From: Chlorobiota bacterium
GTDB taxonomy: Bacteria > Bacteroidota > Ignavibacteria > OLB7
DNA length: 64,000 nucleotides
Reading direction: 5' to 3'
Assembly: GCA_016700335.1 (NCBI GenBank)
Contig: CP065014.1
Span: 2,374,534 to 2,438,533 of the forward strand
Shown here piece by piece: positions 30,305-54,614 of the stretch. Each line of letters opens with the position of its first letter. The first letter of the stretch is position 1. The position numbers and the translations under genes were made by a program. The notes under the pieces were generated by a model. That model saw only the letters and a list, made by a program, of their open reading frames with translations, was not told where the DNA came from and did no database searches.

Positions 30305-32587
30305 ATGTCAAAAGAAAATCATTCTATATTAAATCGTGATAATTTTAGTACAGAATCTAATCCTTTTTTAACCGAAGAGTATAAAAATGAATGTTTAGAT
30401 AGATTACTTAATTCATGCAAAGCACATTTCAAAATTTTTGATTCAGATTTAATTAAAAGAGCATTTTATTTATGTTATGATGCTCACAAAAAAATGATAC
30501 GAGCTTCTGGAGAACCTTACTGGACTCATCCTTGGAATGTTGCAATGATTGTTGCTCAAGAAATTACTATTGATGATGTTTCTGTTGCAGCAGCATTATT
30601 ACATGATGTTGTAGAAGATACTAATTTTACAATTGAAGATATAAAAGAGGAATTTGGTTTTGAAATTGCAGAAATTGTTGATGGTGTTACAAAAATTGGA
30701 GGTGTATTTCATAGTTATGAAGTTTCACAAGCAGCTAGTTACAGAAAGTTACTCTTATCTATGGTAAATGATGTAAGAGTTATATTGGTAAAGTTTGCTG
30801 ATAGACTTCATAATATTAGAACATTATCATTTTTACCTATTAATAAACAAATCAGAATTGCAAAGGAAACCTTAGAAATTTATGCTCCATTTGCAAATAG
30901 ATTTGGTTTAGCAAAACTAAAATGGGAACTTGAAGATTTATCATTTAAGTATATAAACCCTGATGCTTATAATCAAATAAAAAATGGATTAAAAATAAAG
31001 CGAGAAGAACGTGAAAACTATATAAATTCTTCACTAGATTTACTTAAATCTAGATTAGATAAAGAAGGTTTTACATACCAAATTGCAGGTAGACCAAAAC
31101 ATATTTATTCAATATATAATAAAATGAGAATCCAAGGAAAAGATATTGATGAAATACATGATTTATTTGCATTAAGAATTATTTTAGATACTATAAGTCC
31201 TAATGATTGTTTTACTGTATATGGAATTATTTCTGAGGTTTTCACTCCTGTCCCTGAAAAGTTTAAAAACTATATATCAGTACCTAAGAAAAATGGGTAT
31301 CAATCTATCCATACAACTGTTATTGGTCCTAACGGTAAGCAAGTGGAAATTCAAATTAGAACTAAAAAGATGCATGAAATTGCAGAACGAGGAGTTGCTG
31401 CTCATTTTCTTTACAAAGAATCAACTGATGCAGTTCGTAATCCATTGATAAGTATTGATAAACAGATGGAGGATTGGGTTTCTTGGATGAGAGATGTATT
31501 TGATAAAGCAGGCTCAACAAACGCTTCACAAGAAGTTATTGAAAGTTTTAAAATGAATTTATTTCAAGATGAAATTTATGTTTTTACACCAAAAGGAGAA
31601 TTAAGAATATTACCAAAAGGATCAACTCCAATTGATTTCGCTTTTGAGATACATTCTGCTGTTGGGCTTCATTGTATAGGAGCAAAAGTTTCAGGTAGAA
31701 TTGTTCCTTTGAATTCAGAATTAAAATCTGGAGATCAAATTGAAATATTAACTTCAAAAAATCAAACCCCTAGTTTAGATTGGGAAAAATTTGCATTTAC
31801 TCATAAAGCTCAAAATTCTATTCGCAAATTTTTCAATGAATCTAAAAGATTAAAAATAAAAATTGGTAAAGATGCTTGGCAAAAGATATGTAAAAAAGAA
31901 AAATTTCATATAAATGATGATGACTTAGAAAACATTTGTTTAGCTTTAAAATATAGTAATACAAATGAAATGTTTTTTGAGATTGCAAACGAAATAATTA
32001 CATCTGAAAAAGCTTTAACTTTAATTAAGGAAAAACTAAAACCTTATGTTATACTAAATCAGTCAGAAGATCAATCTTCTGAAATTATTCATTATGATAA
32101 GTTTATTAAAGAAGCTAGATTTTCAAATGGAATTATTGTGAATGGCGATGTTAAAGGGTTGAATTATTCTTACGCAAGATGCTGTAACCCAATTCCTGGT
32201 GATTTAGTAATGGGTGTCATTTCTTCTGGAAAAGGAGTAATAGTTCATCGTTCAAATTGTAATAACATTATTTCTTTACTTCAAAAACCAAAAATTAGAA
32301 ATCAAATAGTTGACGTAAATTGGGATACTAATAACAGCATTGAATTTTTATCTGGAATTAGAGTATCAGGTCTAGATCGAGCTGGTATTTTAAATGATGT
32401 TACACATGCAATTTTAACATGTGATAATACTAACATTAGAAGTGTAAACATATATTCTAAAGATTCCATTTTTGAAGGTTATGTTACTCTAATTGTAAAA
32501 GATTTACCTCATTTGTTAAAACTAATGGAGCGATTAAGAAAGATAAGAAATGTTAAATTAGTTGAGAGATTTGAACAATTGACTTAA
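30305..32587 (+). CDS. spoT: Bifunctional (p)ppGpp synthetase/hydrolase (RelA/SpoT family)
   Basis: The 760-aa product has an HD hydrolase domain (HPWNVAMIVA...LLHDVVEDT), a synthetase domain (RPKHIYSIYNKM, SIHTTVIGPNGKQVEIQIRT), and TGS and ACT domains. Confidence 0.9.
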   Translation: MSKENHSILNRDNFSTESNPFLTEEYKNECLDRLLNSCKAHFKIFDSDLIKRAFYLCYDAHKKMIRASGEPYWTHPWNVAMIVAQEITIDDVSVAAALLHDVVEDTNFTIEDIKEEFGFEIAEIVDGVTKIGGVFHSYEVSQAASYRKLLLSMVNDVRVILVKFADRLHNIRTLSFLPINKQIRIAKETLEIYAPFANRFGLAKLKWELEDLSFKYINPDAYNQIKNGLKIKREERENYINSSLDLLKSRLDKEGFTYQIAGRPKHIYSIYNKMRIQGKDIDEIHDLFALRIILDTISPNDCFTVYGIISEVFTPVPEKFKNYISVPKKNGYQSIHTTVIGPNGKQVEIQIRTKKMHEIAERGVAAHFLYKESTDAVRNPLISIDKQMEDWVSWMRDVFDKAGSTNASQEVIESFKMNLFQDEIYVFTPKGELRILPKGSTPIDFAFEIHSAVGLHCIGAKVSGRIVPLNSELKSGDQIEILTSKNQTPSLDWEKFAFTHKAQNSIRKFFNESKRLKIKIGKDAWQKICKKEKFHINDDDLENICLALKYSNTNEMFFEIANEIITSEKALTLIKEKLKPYVILNQSEDQSSEIIHYDKFIKEARFSNGIIVNGDVKGLNYSYARCCNPIPGDLVMGVISSGKGVIVHRSNCNNIISLLQKPKIRNQIVDVNWDTNNSIEFLSGIRVSGLDRAGILNDVTHAILTCDNTNIRSVNIYSKDSIFEGYVTLIVKDLPHLLKLMERLRKIRNVKLVERFEQLT

Positions 32588-42221: not shown

Positions 42222-43568
42222 ATGTTCGCCAATAAAATAATTAATTCTTCTAGAACTGCATCTGTGCGTATTCTTACAACATTACTAAATGAAAGTGAAA
42301 ATGTAAGAAACACATTTCAAGAAAAAGAAATTTTAAGTAAATTATCTAACTCAGATAAAGCACTAGCTCATGAAATCATATCCGGAACAATTAGATGGTT
42401 ACTAAAAATCGATTGGATAATTTTGCAAAGATACAAAGGTGATTTTAATTCTGCACCACTTATTGTAAAAAATTCTCTGCGTATTGCTATATACCAAATA
42501 TTATTTTTAGACAAAATTCCTCAAAGTGCTGCTGTTAATGAATCTGTTGAAATTATTAAACAATATCATAGCCTATCAGTTTCGAAACTTGTAAATGCTG
42601 TATTAAGAGATATACTCCGAAATTTAAACTCCGTTACATATCCAGATGAAAAATCAGATTTGCCTTTAGCTTTATCAGTTAAATATTCTCACCCAAGATG
42701 GATGGTGAGAAGATGGTTAAAAAGATTTTCTGTAGATGAGGTTATTCAGATAATGGAAGCAAACAATGAAAGACCAAAAATTTCTATAAGAGTTAACCCA
42801 ATTATTACTTCAACTGAAAATTTTTTAGATTTAATTTCAAGAACTAAAATTCATTTAAGTAACGGTTACTTTTTAAAAGACAATTTTTATTCTGAAAAGC
42901 TCTCATCAATTGAAAGTAACACATTGTTCAAAAAAGGTTTTTTTACTATTCAAGATGAAGGTTCAGCATTATGTTCAAAACTTTCTCAAGCGAAGCCTGG
43001 TATGAGAGTAATAGATTTATGCTCTGCTCCAGGTGGCAAAGCTTTAAATATAGCTGGGCAAATGAATAATAAAGGTGAAATTATTGCTGTTGATATTTAT
43101 GAGAATAAGTTAATCAAGATTACTCAAGCTGCTCTTAGGTTGGGTGTCAAGATTATAGAGCCTGTGTTAGGAGATGCAAAATCAATTGATATACACAATG
43201 CTGATATTGTTTTTGTTGATGCTCCATGTTCAGGTTTGGGGGTTATCAGAAAAAAACAAGATATAAAATGGATGAGAACTTCTAACCAAATTAATGAATT
43301 AGTAGTTTTACAATCTGAAATCCTTGAAAATGCAAAAAATCTTGTAAAACCAAATGGACATTTAATTTATTCAACTTGTACAATTGAACAACAAGAAAAT
43401 CATGAAATAATAAAAAAATTTTTAGAAATAAATTCCAATTTTTCAATTGAAAATGCTAACAATTTCTTACCTAATGAAGTGGTGAGCAATAATGGGTTTT
43501 TAGAAACATATTCTCATAAACATAAAATTGATGGTACTTTTGGTGTAAGGTTAAGAAAACATGATTGA
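42222..43568 (+). CDS. rsmB: 16S rRNA (cytosine967-C5)-methyltransferase RsmB (Sun)
   Basis: The product has a NusB-like N-terminus, a SAM motif (DLCSAPGGK), and the catalytic DAPCSG and YSTCT motifs. Confidence 0.85.
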   Translation: MFANKIINSSRTASVRILTTLLNESENVRNTFQEKEILSKLSNSDKALAHEIISGTIRWLLKIDWIILQRYKGDFNSAPLIVKNSLRIAIYQILFLDKIPQSAAVNESVEIIKQYHSLSVSKLVNAVLRDILRNLNSVTYPDEKSDLPLALSVKYSHPRWMVRRWLKRFSVDEVIQIMEANNERPKISIRVNPIITSTENFLDLISRTKIHLSNGYFLKDNFYSEKLSSIESNTLFKKGFFTIQDEGSALCSKLSQAKPGMRVIDLCSAPGGKALNIAGQMNNKGEIIAVDIYENKLIKITQAALRLGVKIIEPVLGDAKSIDIHNADIVFVDAPCSGLGVIRKKQDIKWMRTSNQINELVVLQSEILENAKNLVKPNGHLIYSTCTIEQQENHEIIKKFLEINSNFSIENANNFLPNEVVSNNGFLETYSHKHKIDGTFGVRLRKHD

Positions 43569-44452: not shown

Positions 44453-45727
44453 TTAACCAACATAATCTTTAAACTCATTTTTCTCTGGTTCATTATAAAC
44501 ATAAGTTGGTTCATGTTTATCTTCAATTGTTTCACCAGTTATAATAACTTTTAATAGATTTTTTTTATCAGATAAATTATACATAATATCAAGCATCACA
44601 TCTTCAACAACACCTCTTAAAGCTCTTGCTCCAGTTTTTCTTTCTACAGATTTTTTTATAATAGCATCAATAGCATTCTCATTAAATTCTAATTCAACAC
44701 CTTCCATTGCAAATATTTTTTTAAACTGTTTTACAATTGCATTTTTTGGTTGAGTTAAAATTTGTTTCATTGCAATATCTGTTAATGGTTCAAGTGCTGC
44801 AATAACAGGAAGCCTTCCAACGAATTCTGGAATTAGACCAAACTTCAATAAATCAGAAGGTTCAACAAACTGAAATAGTTCTTCAGATTCTTTTACTCTT
44901 TGCTCTCCTTTGTCATCACCAAACCCCATTTTTGTTTTTGTCATTCTTGATGCTATTATTCTATCTAATCCAGAAAATGCTCCACCACATACAAACAAAA
45001 TATTTTTTGTATCAACTGTTACTAAAGGTTGTTCTGGATGTTTGCGACCACCCTTTGGAGGTACTTTTGCTTTTGTACCCTCAAGTATTTTAAGCAACCC
45101 TTGCTGAACTCCTTCACCAGATACATCCCTAGTAATTGAAGGAGAATCTGATCTACGTGTAATTTTATCTATCTCGTCAATATAAATAATTCCTTTTTCA
45201 GCTTTCTCTACATCGTAATCTGCATTTTGAAGTAATGCAACTATTATTGACTCAACATCATCACCAACATATCCAGCCTCTGTAAGTGTTGTGGCATCAG
45301 CTATTGCAAATGGTACGTCTAAAAGCCTTGCCATTGTTTGAGCTAATAATGTTTTACCAACTCCTGTAGGTCCCATTAATAATATATTCGATTTATCAAT
45401 TTCAACATCATCAAATCCTGAAATTGTTCCTTGAGATTCAATCCTTTTATAATGATTGTAAACAGCAACAGATAAAGATTTTTTTGCTTTGTCTTGACCA
45501 ATTACATATTCATCTAATGCTGATCTGATTGCTTTTGGAGTTGGTCTTTTTGTAAGTTGCTTCTGTATAAGATCCCTTGAATTTTTGCGTAACATATCTA
45601 CTGAGTTTTGAACGCAAATATCACAAATATACACATTTGGTCCTGCTAATATAGAACCAACCTCATCTGGCAGTCTGCTACAAAATGAACATCTTACAAA
45701 ATCTGACTGAAAATTATCAACTGACAT
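44453..45727 (-). CDS. clpX: ATP-dependent Clp protease ATP-binding subunit ClpX
   Basis: The product has a zinc-binding N-terminus (CSFCSR...CDIC), the Walker A motif [12 protein letters not shown], and the GYVGEDVE-like and IVKQF motifs. Confidence 0.9.
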
Positions 45728-48219: not shown

Positions 48220-50055
48220 TTAATCAGTTAAAGTTTGTGCTTTTAAAGTGTGTCTTTTGCTAGCTTCAAGAATTACCTTTCTTAATCTAATAGATTTTGG
48301 AGTAACTTCAACTAGTTCATCTTCTTTTAAAAATTCAATTGCTTTTTCTAATGTTAAAGGAGTTACAGGTGTTAGTTGAACAGCTTCATCTTTACCAGAA
48401 GCCCTCATGTTTGAAAGCTTTTTCTCTTTTACAGCATTAACATTTAAATCATTATCTCGATTATGTTCACCAATAATCATCCCTTCATAAACTGGATTTG
48501 TTGGCTCAACAAACATTGTTCCTCTTGGCTCTAGATTAAACAATGCGTAAGGAACTGCATTTCCTGATCTATCAGCAACTAATGATCCAGTAAGCCTTGT
48601 AGGGAAATCTCCACGATGCTCCTCATAACCCATTAAATATGAATTCATCAAACCTGTTCCTTTAGTATCTGTTAAAAATTCATTTCTGTAACCAATCAAA
48701 GATCTTGATGGAATTGAAAATTCTAATCTTACTCTTCCAGTTCCATGATTAACCATATTAATCATTCTACCTTTTCTTCTAGATAACTTTTCAGTAACAA
48801 CACCCATAAAATTTTCATCACAATCAATAAACAAATGTTCAATTGGTTCCACAACTTTCCCATCTTTTTTCTTGAAAATAACTTGTGGTCTGCCAACAGT
48901 TAGTTCATAACCTTCCCTTCTCATTGTCTCAATCAAAATTGCCATTTGAAATTCACCTCTACCTTTTACAGTAAATGAATCTGATTCCTGAGTTGTCTCA
49001 ACTTTTAAAGCTACATTACTTAACGTCTCTTTTAATAATCTTTCTCTAATTTTATTAGATTGTACATGCTTACCTTCACGGCCAGATAATGGAGAAGTAT
49101 TAATTGTAAACATCATAGATATAGTTGGCTCATCTACAGAAATTCTTTTTAAAGGTTTTGGATTATTTCTATTGCAAATAGTATCACCAATTTTTACATC
49201 TTCAATACCTGCAAGAATTGCAATATCTCCAGCATCTACTTGTTCAGTATCACCAATACTAACTCCTTGATACGTTTGTAATTTAGAAACTTTTAACGGA
49301 ACTGGTTTGTTATCTTCACCAATACAAACCAAAGATTCACTATTATGAACATTACCATTGATTACTCTTCCAATTGCTAATCTACCAAGATATTCACTGT
49401 AATTTAAATCTGCAACTAACATCTGGAATGGTTCATCAGGATTGTAAGATGGTGGTGGTAATTCATTTACAATTGCTTCATATAAAGGCTTTAAATCTAT
49501 TCCAATTTCATCTAAACTATTTTGAGCAATTCCGTCTCTTCCAATAGCATATAAAACTGGGAACTCAATTTGTTCATCATTAGCTTCTAGATCAATAAAC
49601 AGATCATAAATTTCATTTAGAACTTCTTGAGGTCTTGCATCCTGACGATCAATTTTATTTACAACAACAATAATTTTCTTTTTTCCCTCAAGTGCTTTTT
49701 TGAGAACAAACCTAGTTTGAGGTAATGGTCCTTCACTAGCATCAACAAGAAGGATAGCACCATCAACCATCATTAAAGCTCTTTCAACTTCCCCTCCAAA
49801 ATCTGAGTGACCAGGAGTATCTAGAATATTAATTTTAACATCACCCCAATGGACTGAACAGTTTTTAGCAGAAATTGTAATCCCTCTTTCCCTTTCTAAA
49901 TCCATAGAATCCATAATTCTATTATCAACATGTTGATTTTCCCTAAAGATACCACTCTGTTTGAAAAGATGATCTACTAGTGTAGTTTTACCGTGATCAA
50001 CGTGTGCTATAATAGCTATGTTGCGGACTTTATTGTTGAATACTATATTTTTCAT
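48220..50055 (-). CDS. typA: Translational GTPase TypA/BipA
   Basis: The product has G1 (AHVDHGKTT), G3 (DTPGHSDF) and G4 (NKID) motifs and is colinear with EF-G-like domains over 611 aa. Confidence 0.9.
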
Positions 50056-50248: not shown

Positions 50249-51712
50249 TTAAAAATAGTTTGGTGATTCTTTTGTTATTGATACATCATGTGGATGAGAT
50301 TCCCTTAATCCTGCTCCACTCATTTTTACAAACCTAGCATCTCGCTTTAAATCATCTATTGTTCTACAACCGCAATAGCCCATTGCTGCTCTCAATCCAC
50401 CAACCATTTGCCTAATAACATCAGCAAGAGGACCTTTAGAAGGAACTCTTCCTTCAATTCCTTCTGGGACTAATTTTGATATTTCATCTTCCACATCTTG
50501 AAAGTATCTATCAGCTGAACCTTTTACCATTGCACCTAAAGAACCCATTCCTCTGTAAGTTTTATAAGATCTACCATCTAAAATAATTTTTTCACCTGGC
50601 GATTCATCAACTCCTGCAAACAAATTTCCAATCATAACAGTATCTGCTCCTGCAGCAATAGCCTTCGCCATATCACCAGTTTGTTTTATTCCACCATCTG
50701 CAATAATTGGAACCCCTTCACGATTTGCTATATCAGCAACATTCATTATAGCTGATAGTTGTGGCACACCAACACCAGCTATTATTCTAGTTGTACATAT
50801 ACTTCCAGGACCAATACCAATTTTTATTCCATCAGCTCCTGCATCTATCAAAGCACTACATGCTTCCGAAGTTGCTATATTGCCAGCTACTACCTGAAGA
50901 TTAATAAATTTAGATTTGACCATTCTAACTGCTTCGATAACGCCTTTTGAATGCCCGTGTGCTGTATCAATTATAACTGCATCAACTCCAGCTCTTACAA
51001 GTGCATCTGCTCTTTCTAATGTTTCTCCACTTACTCCTAAAGCTGCTCCTACTCTTAATCTACCCAACATATCCTTTGCAGAATTTGGATGCTCCCTTTT
51101 TTTTCTAATGTCTTTAACTGTAATTAACCCTTTTAAAAATCCATTCTTATCTACTACTGGCAATTTTTCGATTCTGTTTTTTTGTAAAATATCTTCTGCT
51201 TGCTCTAATGTTGTTCCTTCAGGTGCAGTTACAAGATTTTCATGAGTCATGACTTCAGAAATTGGTGTATCAGGATTATGCTGAAATCTTAAATCACGAT
51301 TAGTTACAATTCCAACTAACTTGCCTTCATCATCAACAACAGGTACTCCACTTATAGAATATGTTGTCATTAACTTTGTGGCATCATATACTTTACTTTC
51401 ACGTTTTACTGTTATCGGATCTAATATCATTCCACTTTCACTCCTCTTAACTTTTAAAACATTCGCAGCTTGTTGATCTATTGACATATTCTTGTGTATT
51501 ATACCTATCCCACCTTCTCGGGCTATAGCAATTGCAAAACTAGATTCAGTTACAGTATCCATTGCTGCAGAAACAAGTGGTATATTTAATTTTATACCCT
51601 TAGAAAAATTTGTTATCAAACTTGTCTCTCTAGGTAAAAACTCGCTGTATCTTGGCACCAATAGCACATCATCGTAAGTAAGTGCTTCACCAAGTATCTT
51701 GTTTAAATTCAT
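50249..51712 (-). CDS. guaB: IMP dehydrogenase
   Basis: The product has the catalytic loop [11 protein letters not shown], tandem CBS domains and GGIKQTGD. It is 487 aa. Confidence 0.9.
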
Positions 51713-51795: not shown

Positions 51796-54444
51796 TTATG
51801 TATTTGAAATTTGCAACTTATCAGTGACATCTAATCCAAGTCTATGAGAAAAAAATCTAAAATTTTCAATTGGTAATGTCTCATCTGGAATCAATTTTAT
51901 TCTTACAAAATTTTTCATCATTAACTTAGTTAATCGGCTAATGTTTCCCTCTGTTATATAGTCCATCATTGAAGGATTTACTGATAAAGATAACCTAAAG
52001 TCTTTAGTATTTTGCTTAAAATCATGAAGCCATTGTTCTATTCTTTTCATTATTAATGGTTTTGAATGAACAAATCCTCTACCATCACAAGTCCTGCATG
52101 TTTCAGACATTGAGTTAACAACTTGATTACGAATTCTTTGCCTAGTTATTTGTAAAATGCAAAATTGTGACATTGGTAAAACAACAGTTTTAGCTTTATC
52201 TGTCAATAATAATCTTCTCATTTCATCATAAATTTTTCTCTTATTTCTATCATCTTGCATATCAATAAAATCAATAGCAACTAATCCACCAACATCTCGC
52301 AATTTTAACTGTCTTGCAATTTCACGTGCAGATTCAATATTTGTATGCAACGCATTTATCTCTTGTTCATTGCTCCCTTTATATCTTCCCGAATTAACAT
52401 CAACAACCATCATTGCTTCTGTTTGTTCTAAAATAATATAACCTCCACTCTTTAAATATATTTTTCTATGAAACATTTTAGCTAATTCTTTCTCTATTCC
52501 AAATGACTCATAAATTGGATTCTTCTCCTTATAATGTTCAATATTTTTTAACATATCTGGCGCAGCCCAAGATACATATTCCCTTATTTCTTCAAACACT
52601 TTTTTATCATCAATAATTACCTTATTAATATTTTCTGTAAATAAATCACGCATAATACTTGATACTAGTGATGATTCAGAATAAATAAGAGATGGATTAT
52701 TAGCAACTTTAATTTTCTCATCAATAACTTTCCATCTTGCTATTAAATGAGATAACTCCTCACGAATTATATCTTCATCTTTTTCTTTAGCAACTGTTCT
52801 TATTATACAACCATATCCCGTTGGCAACATTTCTTTTGCTATTCTTCTTAATCTTTTTCTTTCAATGTATGATTCTATTTTTTTTGAAACTCCAACCATT
52901 GGTTCTAGTGGTAAAAGCACAAGAAATCTTCCAGGTAAAGATATTTTTGTTGATACTCTCATTCCTTTCTGAGCATATCTTTCACGGGTTACTTGTACTA
53001 ATATTTCCTGTCCCTTTACTAAATCAATAATTACTGAGCCAGACCTTTTTGTTTGAAATGTAGGGAGTTTATTATCAATTGTTTTACTCTTAATTGATTT
53101 GACTTTTTTCTTTAATTCATTTTTTTTATCACTTTTTATTTCGTCAATTTCTTTAACTAAAGTATTTGAGTTATTTTTTAAAATTGGGTTATTATTCTCA
53201 AGTTTAATTATATTATCATTTCTTTTCTTTGATACAGAGTTATTAATTGATCTATTTTTATCAGAGATTTTTGTAGAGTCCTTTATTTTTTTATTTGGTT
53301 CAATTTTATTTTTTTCATGGACAACATTGCTTATACTTAAAACAGTTTCTATAGATTTACTTTTATTGTCATTAACTGAGATACTCTGTTTTGTTTTTAT
53401 ATTATCTTGTTTTCCTTCAGTAACTTTTGTTTGTTTTTTAGAAGTTAAAACACTTTTAATATTAGAACTTATGTCATTATTCTGTTTTTTAGATATAAGT
53501 TTTTTTTCTTTACTTATTACATCATTTTTATTTCCATCATTAAAACTATTTGAAGGTTGAATCTCACTATTTTTTTGGGATAAATTATTACTCTTTTGTT
53601 GTTTTACAATTAGATTTGAATTAACTTTAACTTGAGTAACCTTATTTGAAGCAATTAATTCCCTTGAATTTTGCTTCTGATTTAATGAATTATTATTTAA
53701 ACCTTTTTTTAAAACTAATTTTTTATTCCCTTTATGTAACCCCTTAGAAACAAGATCCAAATCTGTTGATTTGGGATTTACTTGTTTAATATAATCAATT
53801 TTATTAAGTTTATTTTTATGTAGTTTTACTTGGCTCTCTTTTGTAAAATTAACTTCGTTCTTGATTTTTAAGTCATTTACTTTAGTCAATAAATCTAATT
53901 TACTAATTATGTTCCCTTGAGTATGACTTACTTTAGGACGGGTTAAAATAATAGCTCTTTTTTCTTCGGTTAAAGATTCTTTAAGCTCAACTTTAGGATT
54001 AGATGAACTCTTCACTTTACTTTTTTTCTTGTTCTTATTGGAATTTGATTTATTATTATTTTTTAATTTCTTTGAATTAGGATCAATTGAGATTTCCTCT
54101 TTATGAGGATTTTCTTTTTTATTATTTGGGTTAATATTACTTTTATTACCAATCTTTGGAGTTGGCAATTCATCATCATCATCATCACCTGTATCAAGCT
54201 CTGAAGCATTAGCGGCATCAGAAAAATGCAAGAAAGCATCTTGAGAATCCCCAATATCAACAAAAGCAGCATTCATTCCTTGAGCAACTCTCTTTACTTT
54301 TCCCAAATAAATTGCACCTACTGGATTTTCTGTTTCTGGTGTTTCGATAAAAATCTCAACTAATCGATTTTCTTCCAGTAAAGCAACTCTAATTTCTTTT
54401 CCTGTAGCATTTATTACTATCTCTTTTTTCATCTTTTCAATCAT
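51796..54444 (-). CDS. Ribonuclease E/G family endoribonuclease with a large low-complexity insertion
   Basis: The N-terminus carries the first half of the S1 domain (GAIYLGKVKRVAQGMNAAFVDIG...DAFLHFSDA). The second half (IIDLVKGQEILVQVTRE...ISLPGRFLVLLP) and an RNase E/G catalytic core (DVGGLVAIDFIDM) follow about 400 residues later. Confidence 0.8.
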   Translation of the reverse strand: MIEKMKKEIVINATGKEIRVALLEENRLVEIFIETPETENPVGAIYLGKVKRVAQGMNAAFVDIGDSQDAFLHFSDAANASELDTGDDDDDELPTPKIGNKSNINPNNKKENPHKEEISIDPNSKKLKNNNKSNSNKNKKKSKVKSSSNPKVELKESLTEEKRAIILTRPKVSHTQGNIISKLDLLTKVNDLKIKNEVNFTKESQVKLHKNKLNKIDYIKQVNPKSTDLDLVSKGLHKGNKKLVLKKGLNNNSLNQKQNSRELIASNKVTQVKVNSNLIVKQQKSNNLSQKNSEIQPSNSFNDGNKNDVISKEKKLISKKQNNDISSNIKSVLTSKKQTKVTEGKQDNIKTKQSISVNDNKSKSIETVLSISNVVHEKNKIEPNKKIKDSTKISDKNRSINNSVSKKRNDNIIKLENNNPILKNNSNTLVKEIDEIKSDKKNELKKKVKSIKSKTIDNKLPTFQTKRSGSVIIDLVKGQEILVQVTRERYAQKGMRVSTKISLPGRFLVLLPLEPMVGVSKKIESYIERKRLRRIAKEMLPTGYGCIIRTVAKEKDEDIIREELSHLIARWKVIDEKIKVANNPSLIYSESSLVSSIMRDLFTENINKVIIDDKKVFEEIREYVSWAAPDMLKNIEHYKEKNPIYESFGIEKELAKMFHRKIYLKSGGYIILEQTEAMMVVDVNSGRYKGSNEQEINALHTNIESAREIARQLKLRDVGGLVAIDFIDMQDDRNKRKIYDEMRRLLLTDKAKTVVLPMSQFCILQITRQRIRNQVVNSMSETCRTCDGRGFVHSKPLIMKRIEQWLHDFKQNTKDFRLSLSVNPSMMDYITEGNISRLTKLMMKNFVRIKLIPDETLPIENFRFFSHRLGLDVTDKLQISNT

Positions 54445-54515
54445 CGTATTTCAAATATTTAATCTACTTTATTTTGATAAACTAATTTATTTCTAACTTA
54501 AAGGATATAAAAAAA

Positions 54516-54614
54516 GGACCAAGCTTTACCGATTCACACGCCACCTATGCTGACTGCTGCTTCCTTCCGGATCTGACAGGATTGGGCTCGATGACGTTGC
54601 TCGGGACTTGGTCC
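54516..54614 (-). ncRNA. ffs: Signal recognition particle RNA (small/4.5S type)
   Basis: The minus-strand sequence contains CCUGUCAGAUCCGGAAGGAAGCAGCAG, matching the conserved SRP domain IV motif (GUCAGGUCCGGAAGGAAGCAGC). The terminal helix pairs ggaccaag with cttggtcc. The region is a local GC-rich island of about 100 nt. Confidence 0.75.

Follow-up and report, generated by a model that had tools for sequence, protein, structure and literature searches.

RNase E governs global mRNA decay in many bacteria, and current models place the organising disordered region of this enzyme at its C-terminus. A gene of the Rne/Rng family in the window (the whole stretch of 64,000 nucleotides of Chlorobiota bacterium DNA that was analysed) encodes a protein in which about 400 low-complexity residues lie inside the S1 domain of the catalytic half. 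The question raised by this locus is whether the insertion is a genuine part of the enzyme, and if so, what it may contribute. The features of the gene are summarized in Table 1.

Identity of the enzyme and its split S1 domain

The 882-aa protein matched the TIGR00757 profile with 435 bits against a cut-off of 326, and PF10150 with an E-value of 7e-96 and 321 bits against a curated cut-off of 25.5. NCBI places the start of the identical protein at M5 (window 54432), giving 878 aa; its entry P0127/QQS66070.1 is the same as the window protein from M5 onward. The best NCBIfam equivalog match was RNase G (NF008689), and as its score of 338.9 lay below the cut-off of 594 the protein is not an RNase G equivalog. 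The RNase E equivalogs NF008074, NF052586 and NF052588 were not reached either (247.7 against 908, 263.3 against 900 and 242.9 against 1400, respectively). The profile scores place the window protein in the Rne/Rng family at large, as neither an E. coli-type RNase E nor an RNase G.

The functional sites were compared in an alignment of 89 sequences. The Mg-binding and catalytic residues D682, N684 and D725 (E. coli D303, N305 and D346), the 5' sensor residues R549 and T550 (R169 and T170), the S1 RNA contacts F61, F71 and K493 (F57, F67 and K112) and the Zn-link CPxCxGxG cysteines C783 and C786 (C404 and C407) were all invariant. Judged by its residues, the RNase is catalytically intact, the catalytic, 5'-sensor, S1 and Zn-link sites all being kept. 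The core HMM match runs to residue 877 of the 882, leaving no C-terminal extension.

A phmmer comparison with PDB sequences aligned residues 6-78 to positions 1-74 of E. coli RNase E and residues 475-870 to positions 94-492. The Pfam S1 profile matched the first half only (residues 41-97, profile positions 3-50 of 74), and the Pfam RNase_E_G match covered residues 502-770. Between the HMM anchors at core positions 76 and 104, the loop comprises residues 81-476 (window 53017..54204), that is 396 aa. The equivalent loop has ~19 aa in E. coli and 27 aa in insert-free relatives of 506 aa, so the excess over the insert-free baseline is ~370 residues. The connection of the S1 OB-fold from beta3 (with a short helix) to beta4 has thus grown from ~27 to 396 residues. 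A sequence-only reading of the stretch had described two S1 halves separated by an insertion of about 400 aa at 53040-54220, at the site of a loop of about 25 residues in the E. coli enzymes; this description agreed with the alignments, its coordinates and residue numbers being right to within ~20 nt.

The AF2 model gave core pLDDT values above 90, and the strands of the split S1 domain were modelled with confidence on either side of the insert. The first S1 half was composed of beta-strands 45-54, 59-63 and 70-73 followed by the short helices 74-77 and 80-83. The C-side flank motif, for which the clade consensus is MDAKLPTFQTKRSGEVTIALE, was modelled as a hairpin with strands 462-465 and 469-472, and pLDDT climbed from 56 to 89. 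This conserved LPTFQTKRSG hairpin brings the chain back to the S1 barrel, and the halves of S1 are apparently arranged as they are in E. coli RNase E. The best Foldseek match of the model was the catalytic domain of E. coli RNase E (2bx2_L, E=7e-39, TM(target) 0.68), the alignment covering both sides of the insert.

Table 1. Features of the Rne/Rng-family gene, with residue numbers counted from the first ATG and positions in the window
Feature	Residues	Window positions	Strand	Remarks
Rne/Rng-family endoribonuclease CDS		51796..54444	(-)	882 aa from first ATG
RNase H-like subdomain and first S1 half	1-80	54205..54444	(-)	Alignment to E. coli RNase E 1-74; AF2 pLDDT 80-96
Acidic insertion head SELDTGDDDDDEL	81-93	54166..54204	(-)	Acidic run kept in nearly all insert-bearing relatives
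K/N/S-rich polycationic insertion body, predicted disordered	94-455	53080..54165	(-)	AF2, FoldIndex
C-side flank motif IDNKLPTFQTKRSGSVIIDLV	456-476	53017..53079	(-)	Clade conservation; predicted beta-hairpin into S1
Second S1 half (K493), 5' sensor, DNase I-like catalytic subdomain, Zn-link, small domain	477-882 + stop	51796..53016	(-)	

Composition, predicted disorder and evolution of the insert

The insert opens with an acidic DTGDDDDDE head and contains 20% K, 15% N, 12% S and 23% I+L+V, the last share being unusually high for an IDR. Residues K/R/D/E make up 33% of it and the net charge is +40. FoldIndex was negative (-0.21), and the AF2 model showed pLDDT below 50 at residues ~99-455 and no secondary structure across 85-460, low pLDDT being by itself no proof of disorder. 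The insert is predicted to be intrinsically disordered, as the sequence-only reading had also suggested. In charge patterning it was no more blocky than expected by chance (kappa z = 0.6), and therefore no 'charge-block condensate' signature can be claimed for it; the inserts of some relatives are blocky in charge (kappa z = 5-7). The longest K/N/S-rich segment spans 403 residues in this protein versus 0-64 in 24 other large window ORFs. A genome-wide inflation of low complexity was ruled out, as none of those 24 ORFs carried a comparable segment.

Relatives of the protein were then compared. The same reading had pointed to insertion length among close relatives as a check, and the loop measured 377-640 aa in all members of a 23-representative clade, with no short loop among them. 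This insert-bearing clade is monophyletic and its core identity is only 50-76%. In most of its members the core HMM stops 2-7 residues before the C-terminus, hence most have no C-terminal tail. Inserts of 370-720 aa recur in Rhodothermia (Rubricoccaceae) and Candidatus Sumerlaeota, and Fitch parsimony over 252 representatives required at least 7 changes for loops of at least 350 aa and at least 15 for loops of at least 200 aa. In the Chlorobiaceae homologues P0115 and P0116, this loop measures 75 aa and contains the same acidic run. A contig search with back-translated peptides, including insert-derived ones, yielded distant relatives alone (Thioalkalivibrio, Planctomycetota and others), and the insert-bearing clade was not represented among them.

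Conservation within the insert is confined to its flanks, namely the acidic head and, on the C side, the LPTFQTKRSG hairpin motif. Over the first 30 residues of the loop, insert-bearing forms have a mean net charge of -9 to -13; the polarity of acidic head and fast-evolving basic body is kept across relatives, and in many of them a basic patch, only loosely fixed in position, lies ahead of the C-side motif. An E-INS-i alignment of 21 inserts contained no conserved interior islands or short linear motifs, and in pairwise BLAST the inserts scored against one another just as shuffled sequences did, the closest relative included; SLiMs specific to single lineages may nevertheless be present. Charged residues account for 24-50% of the inserts and hydrophobic residues are few. 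The composition follows the genome, with K giving way to R/G/P/A at higher genomic GC. Within the population, all 6 polymorphic amino-acid sites fall inside the insertion (residues 125-436), and 11 full-length variants showed no length change and no indel. The interior polymorphism together with the GC-tracking composition fits a weakly constrained spacer. This structural and evolutionary description of the giant S1 insert is held with high confidence.

The genomic neighbourhood was also inspected. The neighbouring genes in the window are housekeeping genes only (RelA/SpoT, RsmB, ClpX, a DeoC-type aldolase and others), with no helicase, PNPase or enolase as degradosome partner among them. Promoter-like sites in the window scan stood at chance level (24 found, 22 expected). 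An SRP RNA is adjacent to the gene, without any other gene-relevant Rfam match in the window, and no meaning was attached to 3 terminator-like matches within the CDS.

Competing explanations and the proposed role of the insert

An artefact of assembly or annotation, in which two gene fragments were joined as a chimera or misassembled through low complexity, would suit the AT-rich and compositionally biased insert region (GC 0.21-0.23); the sequence-only reading had feared that repeats promote misassembly. That concern was contradicted by TRF, which detected only one 27-nt and one 18-nt micro-array, and by a DNA repeat search, which gave nothing meaningful among dispersed, inverted or direct repeats, insert flanks included. 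Self-BLAST of the protein for cryptic repeats was blank off the diagonal for real and shuffled sequence alike and is therefore uninformative on internal repeats. The assemblies of two other sequencing runs carry a near-identical gene without length change, with differences of 2-3 nt and no indels; over the 8649 nt of the locus compared there were 4-6 mismatches and 0 indels. The identical protein occurs on NCBI contigs of 3.14-3.15 Mb, the one of 3.15 Mb being from a 'Chlorobiota bacterium', its 90%-identity cluster has 27 members, and a 76%-identical relative preserves both synteny and insert. The single open frame noted in the earlier reading also held, with 0 stops across the insert where 2000 shuffles gave a mean of 39 (minimum 20), the other five frames having 8-94 stops each. 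An artefact is thus all but ruled out and is the most improbable of the explanations. The capture of a folded domain, an intein or a mobile element within S1 is brought to mind by the large size of the insert and by its aliphatic share; it is very improbable, as no Pfam family besides S1, RNase_E_G and RNase_E_G_Thio matched the protein at E<=0.01, which leaves no intein or transposase, and as the modelled insert has no secondary structure, its interior is unconserved across relatives and its borders have no inverted or direct repeats. The opposite strand holds a 153-aa ORF (53099..53560, +) that is F/L/S-rich and was rejected as a mere mirror image of the K/N/E-rich coding strand.

Two further explanations accept the insert as genuine. 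The permissive beta3-beta4 loop may have grown by mutation and drift into a tolerated, harmless and essentially functionless segment. An interior that is unalignable and scores like shuffled sequence, the confinement of the polymorphic sites to the insert, a composition tracking genomic GC, the many independent loop expansions and the wide range of loop lengths within the clade all agree with such accretion. However, bacterial genomes are deletion-biased, yet the insert was lost in 0 of the 23 clade representatives and no indel was present among the population variants. High charge and low hydrophobicity are upheld across very different GC contents, the polarity of acidic head and basic body is conserved, and shorter inserts at the same site matter in Arabidopsis, where deletion lowers activity (cited in PMC4245959). 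Functionless growth is accordingly rated as unlikely, while carrying real weight. The insert may otherwise act purely as an autoinhibitory gate, the acidic head and the insert blocking the RNA channel until a partner such as a DEAD-box helicase, or a signal, displaces them, with no scaffolding or RNA capture. [quoted passage not shown] Against a pure gate, tens of residues suffice for such a task and short-insert relatives already carry the acidic run, ~350 further cationic residues are left unexplained, and no helix is predicted in the window insert. This explanation was judged quite improbable.

The preferred explanation, which blends the description with a mechanism, was given slightly better than an even chance as a whole; its functional part, an RNA-capturing or scaffolding arm, is proposed tentatively, at less than an even chance. 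RNase E works as a tetramer, and as the protein has no C-terminal tail, four polycationic arms of ~370 residues each would project from beside the RNA-binding channel as the only disordered appendage of the enzyme. These arms would capture and concentrate RNA electrostatically, and may possibly recruit partners or drive condensation, much as the C-terminal IDR does in the enzymes of E. coli and Caulobacter. By folding back onto the S1/5'-sensor channel, the acidic head may serve there as an RNA mimic or a gate, a role also put forward for the Caulobacter insert. With the C-terminal tail missing, it is reasonable, by analogy, to consider the internal IDR as a possible stand-in for the C-terminal scaffold of RNase E, an analogy that the sequence-only reading had drawn. 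A broader and more doubtful proposal is that the giant S1-embedded IDR could be the equivalent of the degradosome or BR-body scaffold in tail-less RNase E/G lineages, convergently invented several times at the one permissive loop by the RNA channel, in a Chlorobiota/Ignavibacteria-like clade, in Rhodothermia (Rubricoccaceae) and in Candidatus Sumerlaeota, and that it would organise RNA decay, from within the catalytic half, via RNA capture, partner recruitment and/or condensation.

The significance of the insert depends on which explanation holds. Tail-less enzymes that carry 370-720 residues, predicted to be disordered, inside the S1 module occur in a deep uncultured clade and in at least two other phyla. 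If these arms bind RNA or partners, a degradosome-like organisation would have evolved via a different topological route, beside the active-site channel, which would bear on how substrates gain access and how the enzyme is regulated. Should the insert be no more than tolerated, it would mark the most expandable loop documented in the RNase E fold, of use in protein engineering and in annotation, the latter because Pfam S1 is only half-detected. The locus offers a clean natural test case in which IDR length, charge and polarity are conserved without sequence conservation.

Comparison with known S1 inserts and RNase E scaffolds

E. coli RNase G (Rng, 489 aa) shares the core-only, tail-less architecture of the window protein, whereas its S1 loop is short in place of the 396-aa loop. 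C-terminal IDRs of RNase E are described in the literature as scaffolding degradosomes and BR-bodies. Like those of the E. coli degradosome and the Caulobacter BR-bodies, the IDR considered here is long, highly charged and borne on the same catalytic core; unlike them, it is internal to the catalytic half with none following it, and the comparison of 21 inserts detected no conserved microdomains or SLiMs. Nor does it show the charge blocks of those IDRs that have been connected with condensation.

The closest likeness is to inserts of the S1 domain itself. Inserts of 50-150 aa have already been described in alpha-proteobacteria, plants and Chlorobium (PMC4245959, PMC2486463), and were reported as charged, predicted disordered and adjoining the RNA channel (PMC4245959). 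In Caulobacter crescentus RNase E (PDB 4OXP; Voss et al. 2014, PMC4245959), the insert occupies the same S1 loop, E. coli 74-94: residue ~173 of 4OXP corresponds to E. coli 94-96, the offset of ~78 residues arising after E. coli residue 74. Both inserts are charge-rich and predicted disordered, with acidic residues by the RNA channel. The Caulobacter insert has ~80 aa as compared to ~370 extra residues here and is partly alpha-helical in the crystal, in contrast to the helix-free prediction for the window insert, and the Caulobacter enzyme has a long C-terminal scaffold in addition. The RNase E of plant chloroplasts and the RNase E/G of Chlorobium tepidum (Mudd et al. 2008, PMC2486463), the latter from the same broad lineage as the window organism, have their inserts at the same location; those inserts have ~50-150 aa, and the plant enzymes also bear long N-terminal extensions. 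The window insert fits this published class by site, charge and predicted disorder, and falls outside its length range of 50-150 aa; the giant inserts are 3-5 times longer. A class of giant (>350 aa) S1 inserts was not mentioned in the literature searched. Since inserts of 50-150 aa are already published, the giant insert is an extreme variant and not a new kind: the insertion hot spot is known, and what is new here is the size of the insert and the lineage that carries it.

The RNase E/G gene and its divided S1 domain

The single ORF of 882 aa encodes an intact RNase E/G whose S1 domain is split by a long segment, translated, conserved in its lineage and with predicted disorder. The RNase_E_G catalytic family was matched by Pfam at residues 502-770 (E=7e-96) and a thioredoxin-like small domain at residues 782-863; of S1, the first half alone was matched (residues 41-97, profile positions 3-50 of 74). 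The NCBIfam cut-off of TIGR00757 (Rne/Rng family) was exceeded, and the equivalog models for RNase G and RNase E all scored far under theirs. A classification is reportedly available from Aït-Bara and Carpousis. The phmmer search of PDB sequences aligned the protein with E. coli RNase E in two parts, residues 6-78 with 1-74 and residues 475-870 with 94-492. With a core profile from 21 insert-free homologues (505-512 aa), the insert was delimited as residues 81-476, between core positions 76 and 104, giving a loop of 396 aa against 27 in insert-free forms and ~19 in E. coli. This length and the split match bear out the sequence-only reading, which had placed an insertion of about 400 aa in the S1 domain at 53040-54220. 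The core ends 5 residues before the protein terminus and therefore the window protein has no C-terminal scaffold. The start codon is ambiguous (54432 or 54444, minus strand), the ORF opening with MIEKMKKE and homologues beginning with MKKEI; the NCBI annotation of the identical protein starts at Met5 (878 aa).

AlphaFold2, run on an 89-sequence alignment, predicted the RNase E core with pLDDT of 90-97 and residues ~99-455 with pLDDT <50; between about residues 84 and 461 the model has no secondary structure. S1 strands were predicted before (45-54, 59-63, 70-73) and after the insert (480-487, 496-498, 508-511), with an extra hairpin (462-465 and 469-472) at the conserved motif LPTFQTKRSG. In Foldseek the top PDB match, 2bx2_L (E=7e-39, target-normalised TM 0.68), is the catalytic domain of E. 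coli RNase E; its alignment covers both sides of the insert, and the Caulobacter S1/5'-sensor structure 4OXP was also among the matches. All the defining functional residues are present and invariant across the alignment.

The SRP RNA shares the strand of RNase E/G, ~70 nt upstream of its start codon. The protein-gene order of T9SS-tailed giant protein, rne and guaB is kept at L059, the locus of the 76%-identical relative. The domain matches and Por_Secre_tail signal of the 1470-aa ORF are consistent with an FCB-group organism. No tRNA genes were found in the whole 64 kb.

Features of the window and functional residues of the RNase E/G protein
Feature	Position	Strand	Remarks
RNase E/G ORF	51796..54444	minus	882 aa, single; ORF call
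S1 insert	53017..54204	minus	396 aa; core profile
Small SRP RNA, bacterial (ffs)	54514..54613	minus	Rfam RF00169; 54.2 bits, E=4e-9
Large ORF, 1470 aa	55271..59683	minus	upstream of rne; IgGFc_binding and Ig-like domain matches, Por_Secre_tail (T9SS C-terminal sorting) signal
Large ORF, 1379 aa	59835..63974	minus	upstream of rne
RelA/SpoT	30305..32587	plus	housekeeping, normal length
RsmB	42222..43568	plus	housekeeping, normal length
ClpX	44453..45727	minus	housekeeping, normal length
BipA/TypA-like GTPase	48220..50055	minus	housekeeping, normal length
IMP dehydrogenase	50249..51712	minus	housekeeping, normal length
S1 RNA contacts	F61, F71, K493		E. coli F57, F67, K112
5' sensor	R549, T550		E. 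coli R169, T170
Mg-binding / catalysis	D682, N684, D725		E. coli D303, N305, D346
Zn-link	C783, C786		E. coli C404, C407

Authenticity and composition of the insert

The coding frame showed no stops over the 396 codons, compared with a mean of 39 and a minimum of 20 in shuffled DNA; the remaining five frames contained 8-94. Repeat finders detected neither tandem nor dispersed DNA repeats of any significance around the insert, and the 8.6-kb locus was present in two independent Logan assemblies (SRR30574913 and SRR30574938) with 4-6 mismatches and no indels. The protein cluster at 90% identity has 27 members, including QQS66070.1 (the same sequence as the window protein from Met5 on) and MBL0331477.1, both labelled 'Chlorobiota bacterium' at NCBI and lying on 3.14-3.15-Mb contigs. 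Among 11 full-length population variants, all 6 polymorphic amino-acid sites fall within the insert (chance ~0.008) and no length changes occur. An assembly artefact is thus excluded for practical purposes. The split S1, the in-frame insertion and the predicted disorder (pLDDT <50, FoldIndex <0) were retained from the sequence-only interpretation; its worry of repeat-driven misassembly was dropped, as repeats are lacking and the locus recurs without indel.

The insert, opening with SELDTGDDDDDE, is composed of K 20%, N 15%, S 12% and I+L+V 23% with a net charge of +40. Only the RNase E/G ORF among the 25 window ORFs of at least 250 aa carries a long K/N/S-rich segment, therefore genome-wide low-complexity inflation is ruled out. 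An antisense F/L/S-rich ORF of 153 aa (53099..53560, plus strand) is very unlikely to be a gene; its composition mirrors that of the K/N/E-rich coding strand.

The flanks and charge polarity are conserved across the clade. On the N-side, a short 'LDEFxDLL'-like stretch leads into an acidic run of D/E, an arrangement also present in short-insert forms; a K/R-rich patch lies loosely 30-50 residues ahead of the insert end, and the C-side motif MDAKLPTFQTKRSGEVTIALE appears in the window protein as IDNKLPTFQTKRSGSVIIDLV (residues 456-476). Net charge is about -9 over the first 30 residues, and it averages +24 in the middle. No alignment was possible across the clade in the interior: against P0002, the 76%-identical relative, the best local score was 57.8 bits compared with a shuffled mean of 57.3, and global identity was 29% for the insert and 76-82% for the core, with lengths nearly equal (396 and 405 aa). 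Clade inserts have a charged-residue fraction of 24-50%, mostly 2-10% hydrophobics, and FoldIndex below 0 in every one examined; K/N is used in AT-rich genomes and R/G/P/A instead in GC-rich ones. Charge blockiness reached z = 5-7 in some relatives and was absent in the window insert (z = 0.6).

Giant loops among relatives

Among 120 homologues, the 20 closest non-identical ones (858-1506 aa, core identity 50-76%) all carry a loop of 377-623 aa at exactly the same site, so the insertion in close relatives is giant and not a short loop. At greater distance, in relatives with Kapabacteria, Bacteroidota MAG and Chlorobiaceae annotations, the loop measures 40-130 aa; in the farthest it returns to the 27-aa baseline. 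The neighbour-joining tree of the core grouped the giant-loop sequences in one clade and placed a second giant-loop pair, P0041 and P0059 (485-488 aa), among short-loop forms.

HMMER was run exhaustively over 1.84 billion representatives, followed by analysis of 252 well-aligned top representatives; 35 of them have loops >350 aa and 52 have loops ≥200 aa. By Fitch parsimony the >350-aa class needs 7 or more changes and the ≥200-aa class 15 or more, counts that are rough minima on an approximate NJ tree. The window's clade (23 representatives) was the largest group; outside it, Rubricoccaceae (Rhodothermia) and Candidatus Sumerlaeota are named carriers, their loops reaching 723 aa. By these minima and carriers, the S1 loop is a recurrent expansion hot spot. 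Three giant-insert clade members, P0012 (1506 aa), P0141 (1488 aa) and P0021 (1193 aa), also bear C-terminal extensions of 300-460 aa past the small domain, therefore the internal and C-terminal appendages are not strictly mutually exclusive. The homologue P0146 (1034 aa) has a tandem of complete RNase E/G catalytic cores, one at residues 6-504 and the other at 530-1031, both spanning core HMM positions 2-504, and looks like a fused duplicate.

Possible role of the insert and comparison with known S1 inserts

RNase E is a tetramer in which the RNA is clamped by S1 and the 5' sensor (PDB 2BX2/2C0B), so four polycationic arms of ~370 residues each would emanate beside the RNA channel. Electrostatic RNA capture and retention would be their most economical role, possibly with partner recruitment or condensation. 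These jobs are done in E. coli and Caulobacter RNase E by the C-terminal IDR, for which the arms may substitute in the window protein. This reading is offered tentatively, its probability being well short of even. The insert may instead be a tolerated spacer, a reading only slightly less probable: its similarity to relatives lies at the shuffled-sequence level, polymorphism is concentrated in it and SLiMs are lacking, but every member of a deep clade has kept it although bacterial genomes are biased towards deletion, it shows no indels in the population, and its charge, polarity and low hydrophobicity are conserved from AT-rich to GC-rich genomes. The acidic head may mimic RNA within the molecule or act as a gate, as put forward for Caulobacter; a purely regulatory gate is improbable as the whole explanation. 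An origin as an artefact, or as a folded or mobile insertion, has next to no probability.

The S1 insertion as a kind of feature is already known, since such inserts of ~50-150 aa, charged and predicted disordered, were described by Voss et al. 2014 (PMC4245959) and an S1 insertion was noted in Chlorobium tepidum and plants (Mudd et al. 2008, PMC2486463). In PDB 4OXP, part of the Caulobacter insert is helical, and the insert projects toward the RNA site, where acidic side chains might mimic RNA, and deletion of the Arabidopsis insert lowers activity (PMC4245959). No paper was found on giant S1 inserts, or on Ignavibacteria/Chlorobiota RNase E/G past the 2008 remark, in a search thin on subscription papers. 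Alignment placed a ~78-residue offset of 4OXP relative to E. coli past E. coli residue 74, residue ~173 corresponding to E. coli 94-96; the Caulobacter insert therefore occupies the same interval as that of the window. What is new, against the published ~50-150 aa, is the size class (~370 extra residues here and up to ~700 elsewhere), the lineages, and the insert being the protein's only region of predicted disorder.
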